From contig JAYTHY010000011.1 in the NCBI GenBank assembly GCA_043732185.1, forward strand, positions 1 through 6,465: a DNA stretch of 6,465 nucleotides, written 5' to 3'. This document shows positions 72 to 4,073 of the stretch, in pieces. How positions within the stretch are numbered: position 1 is the first letter of the stretch; each line of letters starts with the position of its first letter. The notes beneath the pieces were generated by a model. It saw only the letters and a list, made by a program, of their open reading frames with translations. It did not search any database and had not been told where the DNA came from. The DNA comes from Fibrobacteria bacterium (GTDB taxonomy: Bacteria; Fibrobacterota; Fibrobacteria; UBA11236). The translations under genes were made by a program, and so were the position numbers.

Positions 72-1004
72 TTATGGTAGTAGAGTGCGAGAGGAAACAT
101 TATCCAAAGGGCTGACAATCTTCGAAACATTGTTGGTGGCAACATGGGTATACCGTTCTGTAGTTTTTGAACTGCTATGACCTAATAAGGCCTGGATAAA
201 CCTTAAATCGGTACCATTTTCTAAAAGGTGAGTCGCAAAAGAATGGCGGAGGCTATGGATGCCACCAAATTTGACCATTCCGGCCTTTTTACAGGCATTT
301 TCGAATACCATCTGAAATGCGCGTCTTGTTAAAGCTTTACCCGATAGCGGAGATTCAAAGACAAAGGTTTTTGGCCCAAAGTGGTCGAGGTAGTCTTTGA
401 TGGGCTTTCGCAAAATTTCCGGAAATAGGACTACCCTATCCTTTCCGCCTTTTCCATTCCGGATTTTAATAACGCTTCGATTGTAATCAATATCGCAGAT
501 TTTTAATGCAGCCAGTTCGCTAACCCTTAGTCCAGATCCATAGGCCAGGGAAAGGGCTAATTTGTGTTTTGGATTTTTGATTTCCCCAATAACCTTTTCA
601 ATGCTCTTTGCATCCAATACCACCGGTAATTTTGCGTTTTCTTTCAGGCGGGGGATTGTATCCAATCGAATTGCGGATTTGACAACATTCCGGCAGAAAA
701 AGGATAGGCCATCTCGATACAGATTGACTGTAGCGGCATTCAAGCCTCTGTCTTGCTTTAAGGAGAGAAGAAACGATCGCAGCTCGGTGATTTTCCATAG
801 GTGGGGAGAGCCGGGATGAACTTTAATAAAGCATCTTACAGCATTGTCATAATTATTAAAGGTTTCCTTGGAATAATTTCTGGCTGCTATTTCCGCTCGT
901 AAGCGCGCTGACCAAAAGCTTAACCAATCCTTGGGTTTGGAATCGGCAGGTACTGCGTTCGATCGCGGTTGAATCAGATTTTGTGACATTGGATATCCAT
1001 TCAA
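72..1004 (-). CDS. Tyrosine recombinase, integron-integrase-like (N-terminal SAM-like domain plus catalytic domain), lacking the IntI-specific insertion
   Basis: The catalytic set is complete: YGSGLRVSE (R), GKGGKDR (K), HSLRHSFATHLL (H-x-x-R), LLGH (H), TTERYTHV (Y). The N-terminal RNYSKET..Y, the KLPVVL linker and the C-terminal SPLD are typical of IntI-like enzymes. The segment KDYLDHFGPKTFVFE is short, with no IntI 'LPxALxRKYP' insert. The true start may be the ATG at 989 (MSQNL), which has TGGA 6 nt upstream. Confidence 0.95.
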   Translation of the reverse strand: MNGYPMSQNLIQPRSNAVPADSKPKDWLSFWSARLRAEIAARNYSKETFNNYDNAVRCFIKVHPGSPHLWKITELRSFLLSLKQDRGLNAATVNLYRDGLSFFCRNVVKSAIRLDTIPRLKENAKLPVVLDAKSIEKVIGEIKNPKHKLALSLAYGSGLRVSELAALKICDIDYNRSVIKIRNGKGGKDRVVLFPEILRKPIKDYLDHFGPKTFVFESPLSGKALTRRAFQMVFENACKKAGMVKFGGIHSLRHSFATHLLENGTDLRFIQALLGHSSSKTTERYTHVATNNVSKIVSPLDNVSSRTLLP

Positions 1005-1986: not shown

Positions 1987-2045
1987 ATGAAAAATTTGAA
2001 AAAGACTTGTGGGAAGTTCGATCAAATATTAAAGATGGAATTGCG
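1987..2045 (+). pseudogene. Remnant of a RelE/HigB (Gp49-like) toxin gene
   Basis: KFEKDLWEVRSNIKDGIA resembles the 'RKL..DLWEVRS....IAR' core of Gp49/HigB-like toxins. Only about 18 codons remain. They are out of frame with the ATG at 1987 and joined directly to the antitoxin RBS. Confidence 0.75.
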
Positions 2046-2054
2046 GGAGGTTTT

Positions 2055-2339
2055 ATGATCAACAAAACTAAGCGAAGTAATTTTGACAACTTCCTTGAAG
2101 AAGAGGGGCTTTTGGCCGAGGCGGAAGCGGTTGCGGCTAAGAGGGTATTAGCCCACCAATTTCAATCTGCCAGGAAAAAAAGGCGCATGACCAAATTGTC
2201 GATGGCGAAAAGGATGAAAACAAGCCGGACAGCCTTGGATAGACTTCTTGATCCAAAAAATTCCTCTGTGACACTTCAAACGCTAGAACGTGCGGCTGTA
2301 GTCTTGGGAAAGAAACTGAAAATCAGTTTGGTATATTGA
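2055..2339 (+). CDS. XRE/HTH antitoxin (HigA-like partner of Gp49-like toxins), 94 aa
   Basis: SNFDNFLEEEGLLAEAEAVAAKRVLAHQ...MAKRMKTSRTALDRLLDPKNSSVTLQTLERAAVVLGKKLKISL is characteristic of this family. SD GGAGG precedes the ATG at 2055. The longer track ORF from 2007 includes the toxin remnant. Confidence 0.9.
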   Translation: MINKTKRSNFDNFLEEEGLLAEAEAVAAKRVLAHQFQSARKKRRMTKLSMAKRMKTSRTALDRLLDPKNSSVTLQTLERAAVVLGKKLKISLVY

Positions 2340-2486: not shown

Positions 2487-2765
2487 TCACTTTCGCATGG
2501 CACGAAGATAGTCGTGCAGGATCTCTTCTAAAGGGATAACTGAAATGCGGTCATAGGAATGATAAATATATGGCCTAATAGGTCGAGTCCAATTGCAGAT
2601 CTTGTAATCTCGGATGCTATAAGTTTCATAGAATTTCTTGTAGGCTTTTCCATTGGGGACGCCGACCGAACGGCGCACAAAGCGATTGGCCGCAGCTTTT
2701 TCCATCTTAAGACGCTTTGTCCCATATCCATCAGTGGTAATGGGCTTTCGATAGGAACGACTCAT
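2487..2765 (-). CDS. Conserved hypothetical basic protein, 'MSRSYRK...ANR.VRR...NGKAYKK.Y....I.DY' type (92 aa)
   Basis: ATG with SD AAGGA upstream. I recall this motif pattern from uncharacterised bacterial and phage proteins; I know of no established function. Confidence 0.85.
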   Translation of the reverse strand: MSRSYRKPITTDGYGTKRLKMEKAAANRFVRRSVGVPNGKAYKKFYETYSIRDYKICNWTRPIRPYIYHSYDRISVIPLEEILHDYLRAMRK

Positions 2766-2798
2766 GTTTTAGTCCTTGGTTAAGGTGACTAAAACACG
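2763..2798 (-). promoter_or_regulatory. RNA hairpin sequestering the SD and AUG of 2487..2765
   Basis: The mRNA reads CG-UGUUUUAGUC-AC-CUU-AACC-AAG-GACUAAAACA-UG. Perfect 10-bp arms lie at 2765-2774 and 2787-2796, extended by CUU/AAG inside and G-U/C-G outside. Confidence 0.8.
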
Positions 2799-2854
2799 GC
2801 TCCTTTTCGACCGGTCCACGGCCTTCGGCAAGGGGATTGGTTGGCTTTGGACAT
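2789..2854 (-). CDS. Putative leaderless leader peptide (uORF) MSKANQSPCRRPWTGRKGAVF*
   Basis: ATG at 2854 with no SD, 6 nt downstream of a -10-like TATATT (2866-2861). The TAG at 2791-2789 lies inside the 5' arm of the hairpin. Confidence 0.55.
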   Translation of the reverse strand: MSKANQSPCRRPWTGRKGAVF

Positions 2855-3317
2855 GCGCTAAATATACTGCAATTTATTTGGAAAAAGAACAATTAACTTA
2901 ATCGTGGTAAAACCTCGCCGTTTACGGGCAGCGATAACCCGTCGATGACTCAATCAGGAACAAAGCTTCATTTACTCCGGCATCATTGTAGCGTTTCGCC
3001 CATCGAGGGCTCCCATGATTTTCCTGCGGAAGGCATCGGCCTTTGGCCTCGTCAATCAATCTCAATTCCACCCTCGCGAAATCTACCGCGTAGCTATTCA
3101 AGACAGTGCCGTCTCAATCATGTTCGCGGCCACTGGGTTCCTGTCCCTCCGTGATCGTTTCCCATCTTATTTAGTTTAATCAGAATTCAAATTAAAAGGG
3201 TGGGGGAGGCACATCCACGCCTTTACCTGGAAATTGCATTCGGACGCCGTCGCACATGTGCGCGGTAAACTACGAGGCGTTCATTGCATAGAGTATAACT
3301 GCACGGGCGAAATTAGC

Positions 3318-3539: not shown

Positions 3540-3578
3540 CGGGAGATCCTCATTTGTTAAAGGATTTCGAATAACTGA

Positions 3579-4073
3579 GTGAAAAGTAACCTTTCAAGGA
3601 TTTTTAGTCATGATCCGAATTGGAAGGATGGTGTAGATCTATCTGCCCTAATCCTTCCAATTTCCATCGGCCGACGTCCCCCAAGGAGCCGTCGCCCGGG
3701 CTCAACTACCGCTCCGCCAATTGAAAACTTCCAGAAAGCACGAAACGGAAGTATTTTTGACTTAAGATCGCGAATGAATAACGGAGCCCGAATCAAAAAT
3801 GATGCCTTTTTGTTAGCAAGGGACAATGGTTTTGTTCTCAATAAAATCGGTGTGAAAACATTGGACGGAAAGTATCGACCGAATGTGGTGAGAATTTCAC
3901 TTGAAGAATTTATTGAAGAGTTGCTAAAGCCAGAAAATTTGGTTATCCTAACGCATACAAGCCCGAGAGACGGAATTTGGATTTCGAAAATGGATGAGGA
4001 ATTCGAATTAATTGCACAGGGAAGAGGCCAATCATCTCCATTCAATTCCCACCTATTACATATTACCGCATAA
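3579..4073 (+). CDS. Hypothetical protein, probably 5'-truncated or chimeric (coding-like from about 3720; alternative ATG at 3774)
   Basis: The open frame is 164 codons. The part from IENFQK onward looks globular, while the N-terminal part crosses two hairpins and is Pro/Arg-rich. The stop TAA lies within GCATAAC. Confidence 0.5.
   Translation: MKSNLSRIFSHDPNWKDGVDLSALILPISIGRRPPRSRRPGSTTAPPIENFQKARNGSIFDLRSRMNNGARIKNDAFLLARDNGFVLNKIGVKTLDGKYRPNVVRISLEEFIEELLKPENLVILTHTSPRDGIWISKMDEEFELIAQGRGQSSPFNSHLLHITA

Follow-up and report, generated by a model that had tools for sequence, protein, structure and literature searches.

How a gene is translated when the signals for its translation are locked in RNA structure is the question raised by the minus strand of a 6,465-base stretch of DNA from Fibrobacteria bacterium (contig JAYTHY010000011.1 of assembly GCA_043732185.1; hereafter the window), which is an entire contig of a 4.46-Mb, 139-contig genome. 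At 2487-2765 on the minus strand, the window carries a gene for a 92-amino-acid basic protein (MSRSYRK...) of an unnamed phage-type family, and both the Shine-Dalgarno (SD) motif and the AUG of this gene are predicted to be paired in a hairpin whose 5' arm contains the stop codon of a short upstream open reading frame (uORF). The favoured answer, held to be probable and still well short of certain, is obligatory translational coupling, in which a ribosome on the short uORF melts the stem and so switches on the main gene. Sequence comparison establishes the predicted structure, its conservation and covariation, its association with a uORF and its specificity for this gene; we infer that ribosomes translate the uORF, that in doing so they melt the stem, and which of the candidate starts serves in the window.

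The leader hairpin of the window

Read on the minus strand, the leader begins with a -10-like hexamer, TATATT (2866-2861), which stands 6 nucleotides (nt; TAGCGC) ahead of an ATG (2854-2852) with no GGAG-type motif upstream. This candidate leaderless start opens a uORF of 21 sense codons, MSKANQSPCRRPWTGRKGAVF, ending in UAG (2854-2789), and the stop codon (2791-2789) falls inside the 5' arm of a predicted hairpin at 2798-2763, composed of a 5' arm (2798-2782), a loop (2781-2778) and a 3' arm (2777-2763). In the lower stem 2798-2788 pairs with 2773-2763 through 11 base pairs (bp), one of them G-U, and a bulge at 2787-2786 separates it from an upper stem of 4 bp in which an anti-SD CCUU (2785-2782) pairs with AAGG (2777-2774), for a total of 15 bp. 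The SD sequence of the main gene, AAGGA (2777-2773; SD2), and its AUG (2765-2763; AUG2) are each wholly paired in the 3' arm, and the starts of the uORF and the main ORF lie 89 nt apart, so that their frames differ. An original prediction, made from the letters of the window, had described this arrangement, and its reading of the hexamer, the 6-nt gap, the SD-less ATG, the 21 codons, a stem of about 15 bp (here 11 + 4) holding AAGGA and the whole AUG, and a main gene in another frame is borne out, with the UAG one base away from its implied place in the 5' arm. Its description of the -35 element as weak likewise stands, as the -35 position reads TTCTTT and a scan with the sigma-70 consensus found no minus-strand promoter at the window leader.

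Nested within the 21-codon frame, and in phase with it, is a mini-ORF, GUG-UUU-UAG (2797-2789), which is the counterpart of start-X-stop mini-ORFs found ahead of the phage homologues. Its SD motif, AAAAGGAG (2807-2800; SD1), contains a GGAG that ends 2 nt before the GTG, and the segment GUUCCU in codons 3-5 of the main gene (2758-2753) is a predicted partner of SD1 that would lengthen the helix.

A stem of -14 kcal/mol across an SD sequence and an AUG should block direct initiation. The 41-nt hairpin has a predicted energy of -14.6 kcal/mol (z = -5.03), with none of 200 shuffles equally stable, and the fold of the 131-nt leader gives z = -3.4. In the modelled structure the main gene's ribosome-binding site (RBS) and its start are enclosed in an inhibitory stem-loop whose 5' arm is overlapped by a short ORF, and direct ribosome entry at the main start would be blocked because SD2 and AUG2 are paired in a stable hairpin. 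The inverted repeat of the leader is single-copy in the 4.46-Mb genome, and a scan of this genome for the same register, a start-X-stop paired to a downstream ATG, returned the window site and one SD-less chance match, as compared to no matches in reversed-sequence controls. An Rfam search at E<=1, of the kind proposed with the original prediction, found nothing at the hairpin, its sole match in the window being RefA1 at 3544-3752 (E 0.087, far under the gathering score). When four DNA runs were compared with the window, no difference was found from 2766 to 2866. A strain variant in one DNA run has four changes within 2898-2912, 32-46 nt 5' of the -10-like box, which are too few positions for claiming constraint.

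The hairpin and mini-ORF among homologues

The 92-amino-acid ORF is, on comparative grounds, a genuine gene. It has 10 close relatives, with 152 cluster representatives at E<=1e-3, and the homologues all align from residue 1 (MSRSY[RK]K), with conservation in the N-terminal ~56 residues; a strain variant in a DNA run has five synonymous third-position changes and one altered codon in the gene. From these homologues, 49 distinct leaders were assembled from viral contigs, genome contigs, one metagenome contig and same-genus genomes (individual loci carry L numbers). In 26 of the 49, a uORF stops within one arm, the 5' one, of a hairpin in which the main gene's SD and AUG are paired. Eighteen of them (class A) possess an SD-led mini-ORF consisting of a start and at most one sense codon, and eight (class B) possess a uORF of 3-25 codons, frequently ending ...UUC-UAA, in which CUUC is the anti-SD. 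In 11 leaders (class C) a long upstream ORF stops at -12 to +3 relative to the main start, and 12 (class D) have none of these arrangements; the main start is within reach of a terminating ribosome in 37 of the 49.

The geometry of the class A leaders is tightly defined. The mini-ORF stop lies 23-29 nt upstream of the main ATG, inside the 5' arm, and the distance from the first start (AUG1) to AUG2 is 29-35 nt in 18 of 18, and 32-34 nt in three further leaders, with position i of the first start pairing with position 1-i of the second. A strong SD1 is found 4-14 nt upstream of AUG1 in 17 of the 18, and 15 of the 18 hairpins have z <= -2.6. The sense codon varies (UUU, UAU, ACU, CAU, CUA, UUC, UUG, AUG, ACA and UCA are found), as does the stop (TAA in 10, TAG in 7, TGA in 1), and one leader, L006, is a true AUG-UAA start-stop. 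The stem sequences differ almost wholly between homologues, the only common feature being CCUU..AAGGAG, the anti-SD/SD pair. A fusion of the mini-ORF to the gene by frameshift or read-through was considered and ruled out, as the AUG1-AUG2 distances fall in all three phases.

Association of the mini-ORF with this gene was assessed against other genes of the same loci: an SD-led mini-ORF with its stop 16-32 nt before the start is found in 17 of 49 family leaders and ahead of 1 of 293 other genes, a comparison whose significance is overstated, the homologues being related. The single control match lies on the minus strand of L056, about 30 nt upstream of an ORF at 142-441, and consists of AAAAGGAGG followed by ATG-TCC-TAA; the ORF behind it is probably a spurious TTG ORF overlapping a repeat element, and no SD/AUG-sequestering hairpin was seen there.

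Covariation was measured on 16 end-anchored leaders, rows that had been picked because a mini-ORF and stem were already seen in them, with a stated structure of 14 pairs and 500 shuffles. In this set 84.3% of cells are paired, as compared to 74.3% in shuffles, and the covariation score is 0.411, as compared to 0.256; none of the 500 shuffles reached either value, and slid registers pair 35-57%. The three sense-codon columns contain six, six and five compensatory double changes, and the third base of the stop covaries with its partner (GC in five, AU in four). The G of AUG1 and the UA of the stop are invariant even in rows where they are unpaired (3 and 5 of 16, respectively). G-U cells far outnumber A-C cells in the stem (36 to 4), and the stem therefore belongs to sense RNA rather than to duplex DNA. 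With 19 leaders in an ordinary MAFFT alignment, RNAalifold returned no pairs, the hairpin arms being misaligned.

Specificity for the gene is also apparent from an independent pattern scan of viral contigs, in which an SD, ATG-NNN-TAA and an ATG 17-26 nt further on were specified, and hairpin and coding were left unspecified. Of at least 114 stretches, 80 were taken, and among these were 25 downstream ORFs of at least 40 codons; a hidden Markov model of the family identified five of the 25, among the matches listed, as family members. A covariance model built without them finds the hairpin in L145, L104 and L120, and in none of the roughly 46 non-family loci among the matches listed, at E<=0.01. 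In 32 genomes of the bacterial family the covariance model has four matches, all of them leaders of this gene.

The leaders with and without the device differ in setting. An ARAGORN run on 52 loci revealed that the phage copies sit within co-oriented tRNA arrays, with up to 19 tRNAs per 6 kb, and that the family gene often has tRNAs on either side at distances of no more than a few hundred bases. Of the 26 device-bearing leaders (classes A and B), 21 have a tRNA within 1.5 kb, as compared to 1 of 11 class C leaders. Because class A and B leaders are located in tRNA arrays without an upstream protein cistron, it appears that the family supplies a dummy cistron of its own.

Probable coupling to a dummy cistron, and its alternatives

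Under coupling, the hairpin would pair SD2 and AUG2 with a 5' arm that carries the last codon or codons of the uORF and its stop, blocking direct entry. A ribosome initiating on the upstream ORF would cover or unwind the whole 17-nt 5' arm and terminate inside it, whereupon SD2 and AUG2, about 30 nt downstream, would become accessible, either to the terminating ribosome, which could reinitiate, or to a newly entering one. In most of the phages the dummy cistron would consist of SD1, AUG, one codon and a stop, and in the bacterial genus the same stop would also be reached by a 19-21-codon frame from a probable leaderless AUG, with SD1 predicted to be buried in an extended helix. Because a ribosome positioned at AUG1 or at the stop covers the 5' arm, coupling by unfolding is the simplest reading.

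Two starts could bring a ribosome to the in-arm stop of the window. As the 21-codon frame and the nested GUG-UUU-UAG end at this common stop, the same logic would apply whichever start opens the stem. A leaderless start at 2854 is plausible from sequence statistics, since TATATT-type words are the most strand-biased upstream 7-mers in the window genome, and long ORFs whose ATG stands 6 nt behind a hexamer of this type are about twice as frequent there as in the in-phase background. In the three same-genus leaders that are intact, the uATG aligns, its frame stays open for 19 codons as far as the corresponding UAG, and the -10-like hexamers 6 nt before the uATG read TAAATT, TAAATT and TGCATT. 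Across most of the family, what is conserved is an SD-led mini-ORF and not the leaderless 21-codon frame of the original prediction.

The peptide is another matter. A net +6-nt indel preserves the uORF frame, and a conserved GCCGAA block is read in differing frames, indicating that the uORF peptide is not conserved; the same-genus peptides have no more than A-V-[YF] in common, and the codons concerned are stem nucleotides. The comparative expectation attached to the original prediction has consequently divided, in that a covarying stem with an in-arm stop was found (26 of 49 leaders; 500 of 500 shuffles beaten) and a conserved leader C-terminus was not. As for the second start, the relatives possess GAAGGAG at the genome's optimal distance (GGAG at -9) before GUG-UAU-UAG, and the window has lost 3 nt, placing the start of its GGAG motif at -6, as compared to a genome optimum of -12 to -9. 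Minimum-free-energy folds spanning the uATG to +30 predict a helix between SD1 and codons 3-5 in three of four copies (the window, L055 and L058), L056 being the exception.

Several observations weigh against coupling, beyond the relatedness of the homologues and the choice of covariation rows already mentioned. The device is missing from 23 of the 49 leaders, 12 of which have neither a uORF nor an abutting gene, and three of the mini-ORF hairpins are weak (z -1.3 to -1.5). The presence of AUG1 is partly accounted for by pairing with AUG2, CAUG being self-complementary, and the AU of AUG1 is fixed because this pairing forces it. The in-arm stop lies within TATAAT or TATAAAT in L016, L025, L029, L028 and L145, which also fits an internal promoter. 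In the window itself SD1 is only 2 nt from the GUG and the long uORF is predicted to be paired at its 5' end, so that both candidate openers look handicapped.

Other, less probable explanations of the same leaders can be envisaged, and the better of them retain the ribosome on the mini-ORF and make it a sensor, which extends the idea of the original prediction that expression could report slow termination, slow recycling or antibiotic stalling. In such a scheme the main start would be exposed only while the mini-ORF ribosome dwells on AUG1 or on the stop, whether waiting for a sense-codon tRNA, a release factor or recycling. The amount of protein made would then reflect the capacity for decoding or termination, and tRNA or translation would be the target of the protein. 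The constancy of the AUG1-AUG2 distance at 29-35 nt would suit this scheme, as that is about one ribosome footprint and would leave just enough room for another ribosome in front of one that is parked, as would the location of phage copies inside tRNA arrays. The sense codon, however, varies and covaries with the 3' arm, all three of TAA, TAG and TGA are used, and no leader peptide is conserved, each of which makes such a sensor doubtful; inspection by eye places the cognate tRNA of the codon in the flanks of about half the arrays, which is uninformative. Initiation and termination are described as slow steps on minimal ORFs in the available text of 10.1101/520783, which would favour dwelling as such.

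A related, bolder and equally tentative proposal is that of a family-wide gauge. Here a minimal cistron would lie in the 5' arm of a hairpin that brings two start codons, one ribosome length apart, into pairing, and a ribosome parked there until one tRNA arrives, or until release and recycling occur, would prop open the start of a protein kept in phage tRNA arrays, the window copy being a captured one driven from the leaderless 21-codon frame. If true, the protein would be a tRNA- or translation-directed factor whose output is proportional to decoding or termination trouble, and the tRNA-array location does lend the guessed link of the original prediction to translation some context. A family-wide arrest peptide in the manner of ermC or secM, or a release-factor-specific sensor, is unlikely given the variable codon and the occurrence of all three stops.

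A different class of explanation removes the ribosome from the upstream ORF altogether. Phage T4 genes e, soc and I-TevI are translated from RNA that lacks the 5' arm of a hairpin, and in an analogous transcript-choice or processing switch the hairpin would silence the gene on long precursors, and translation would occur on RNA whose 5' end, made by initiation or by cleavage, falls within the 5' arm, the mini-ORF being a by-product of a -10-like TA-rich box and the self-complementary CAUG. The five TATAAT-type arms and the forced AU of AUG1 are compatible with such a switch, and genes within tRNA arrays would have to be freed by RNA processing; yet most 5' arms are not promoter-like (UUGUAAC, ACUUAAC, CAUUAGU and UUUUAGU, the last being that of the window), the G of AUG1 and the UA of the stop are held invariant when unpaired, a strong SD1 precedes AUG1 in nearly all mini-ORF leaders, and the longer uORFs likewise end in the arm. 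On balance a transcript-choice switch is improbable. Least likely is autogenous control, in which the basic protein would bind its own leader hairpin and repress or activate translation, since stems that differ almost wholly, a shared CCUU..AAGGAG that ribosome binding explains, and the absence of any RNA-binding fold or family match in profile and structure searches outweigh the small, basic nature of the protein and the joint travel of leader and gene across very divergent hosts and contexts.

Obligatory coupling, as the reading preferred here, has precedents that differ from it in instructive ways. In ermCL-ermC and secM-secA a leader ribosome controls an SD-sequestering stem, and these systems need an arrest peptide and an inducer or pulling force; in contrast, no arrest peptide can be encoded by a start and a single sense codon, and no leader peptide is conserved in the family. 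Translational coupling is further exemplified by tap-repA of plasmid R1 and by synthetic bicistronic designs, and two-codon minigenes occur in leaders in the case of the lambda bar minigenes. The layout of such a minigene, with an SD at working distance, is seen in the relatives (GGAG at -9) and in the phage copies; in the window GGAG begins at -6, outside the genome optimum of -12 to -9.

In the LEE1 (ler) leader of enterohaemorrhagic Escherichia coli and in mg2 of axe-txe, two-codon minigenes stimulate a downstream gene (PMC3262186; PMC8708949), and in the parts of these papers that were available the likeness extends to an SD, AUG, codon and stop shortly upstream, and to downstream effects of translation and spacing. 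The available account of axe-txe reports no strong leader structure (PMC8708949), whereas the minigene of this family forms part of a hairpin that sequesters SD and AUG, and both LEE1 and axe-txe are, as presented there, single loci without the comparative support that the family module possesses.

The same logic, a uORF unmasking an RBS held in a stem, is described for mgtQ-mgtB of Salmonella in the accessible portion of PMC8092293. According to that portion, mgtQ requires ribosome-destabilising acidic codons, whereas the family ORF usually consists of a start and at most one variable sense codon; unlike mgtQ-mgtB as it is described there, both start codons here pair together and the module covaries across a phage gene family. 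For f1 VII-IX and MS2 coat-lysis, where the ribosome of an upstream cistron opens or reaches a closed start, the excerpted review PMC12548453 sets out unfolding and reinitiation models and observes that a short uORF might 'deliver' a ribosome; as compared to the coupling outlined there, the upstream cistron of the family is a minimal dummy that ends about 25 nt before the start and does not overlap it. The Start-Stops of E. coli are SD-bearing minimal ORFs within genes that bind ribosomes and give about 16% attenuation (10.1101/520783, available text); the AUG-UAA of L006 is alike, whereas hairpin coupling is not described for Start-Stops in that text. Finally, 5'-terminal uAUGs on SD-led mRNAs, as treated in the available part of PMC4965119, resemble the AUG proposed at 2854, itself a predicted 5' end. 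The -10-like hexamer 6 nt upstream of the SD-less AUG at 2854 fits the leaderless type, in which the -10 element would lie 5-8 nt ahead of such an AUG.

Unmasking of an RBS by a uORF has been described at a few individual loci through mutational work, and here it would take the form of a compact module, some 40 nt long, that has moved with one gene family through diverse phages into a Fibrobacterota genus. Compensatory changes in this module mark the nucleotides that matter, namely both starts, the stop and the anti-SD/SD pair, and the leaders would provide a natural, sequence-diverse minimal set for testing unfolding against reinitiation in the handover to a start some 30 nt on. In the literature searched, whose coverage left out most subscription journals, no description of the protein family or of a conserved minigene-hairpin module was found.

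The protein family and its bacterial copies

The leader draws attention to a small basic protein, so far unstudied, whose gene phages carry amid their tRNA genes. Its closest named record is a Fibrobacterota metagenome-assembled genome, and the family is found mainly on uncultured phage contigs; Atlas and IMG/VR assign it to tailed phages, the Atlas entries being unnamed Uroviricota clusters. Searches of the protein against Pfam, NCBIfam, PHROG and PADLOC gave no match, and a PDB profile search gave E >= 0.5 throughout. The AlphaFold model (pLDDT 79.8, pTM 0.47) has no Foldseek match at E<=1e-3 in PDB or BFVD (best VIA Z 3.4), and tblastn with two family proteins found no match in 50,697 deposited phage records. 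A metagenome scan with a single protein recovered one locus. Recurrent neighbours of the family gene are HNH and homing endonucleases, RNA ligase, exonuclease and helicase, and most neighbours are unknown proteins.

In bacteria, the gene is present in 4 of 14 other genomes of the genus and in none of 282 further genomes of the phylum. One of these four same-genus copies is only a C-terminal remnant, and one has a masked stretch. In this remnant, L057, the last 41 codons remain, 88% identical to the window, the upstream region is replaced by unrelated sequence, and the leader is gone. The surroundings differ from copy to copy, with an SLFN/HATPase regulator and ParD-ParE at L055, RelE and a helix-turn-helix (HTH) protein at L056, and a tyrosine recombinase and a convergent HTH gene in the window. 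These differing surroundings and the patchy presence suggest that the gene is mobile cargo in the bacterial genus; the window gene would be phage-derived cargo that carries its own expression control.

The window itself contains no tRNA. Its tyrosine recombinase (72-1004, minus strand) lies at the contig end and matches the integron-integrase model TIGR02249 in two stretches, scoring 198.6 against a cutoff of 265; its score against XerA, 196.2 against 220, is about equal. An integron attC site was ruled out as an identity for the hairpin, because the recombinase falls below the TIGR02249 cutoff and the palindrome is single-copy, 36 nt long and situated before the gene, and no attC-like repeats were seen in the window. 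The HTH protein of the window (110 amino acids; 2007-2339, plus strand), encoded convergently, has weak matches to Pfam HTH_26/37/31 and a PHROG match to a transcriptional regulator at 7e-8. As the gene lies beside ParD-ParE or RelE-HTH in relatives, the window HTH protein may be an orphan antitoxin-like regulator.

Directly 3' of the gene, L055 and L056 share a conserved element of about 80 nt (at 1800-1880 in each), which consists of a terminator-like GC hairpin and then a shared block, with a further copy at about 245-409 of L056; this element was not found in the window genome.

Among the tRNA genes of the homologue loci, ARAGORN reports suppressor-type tRNAs with anticodons tta (L011:4701-4775), cta (L023:403-492, L025:2013-2087 and L029:1120-1195) and tca (L046:1057-1155). 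The mini-ORF of L011 ends in UAA, and AUG1 and AUG2 of this leader, 30 nt apart, share a frame; suppression would therefore alter the reading of that leader. The copies of L023 and L024, which have no mini-ORF/hairpin device, follow closely on tRNA genes: in L023 the family gene follows the end of a tRNA-Arg by 26 nt, and in L024 it follows that of a tRNA-like gene with the four-base anticodon tttg (L024:2914-2985) by 16 nt.

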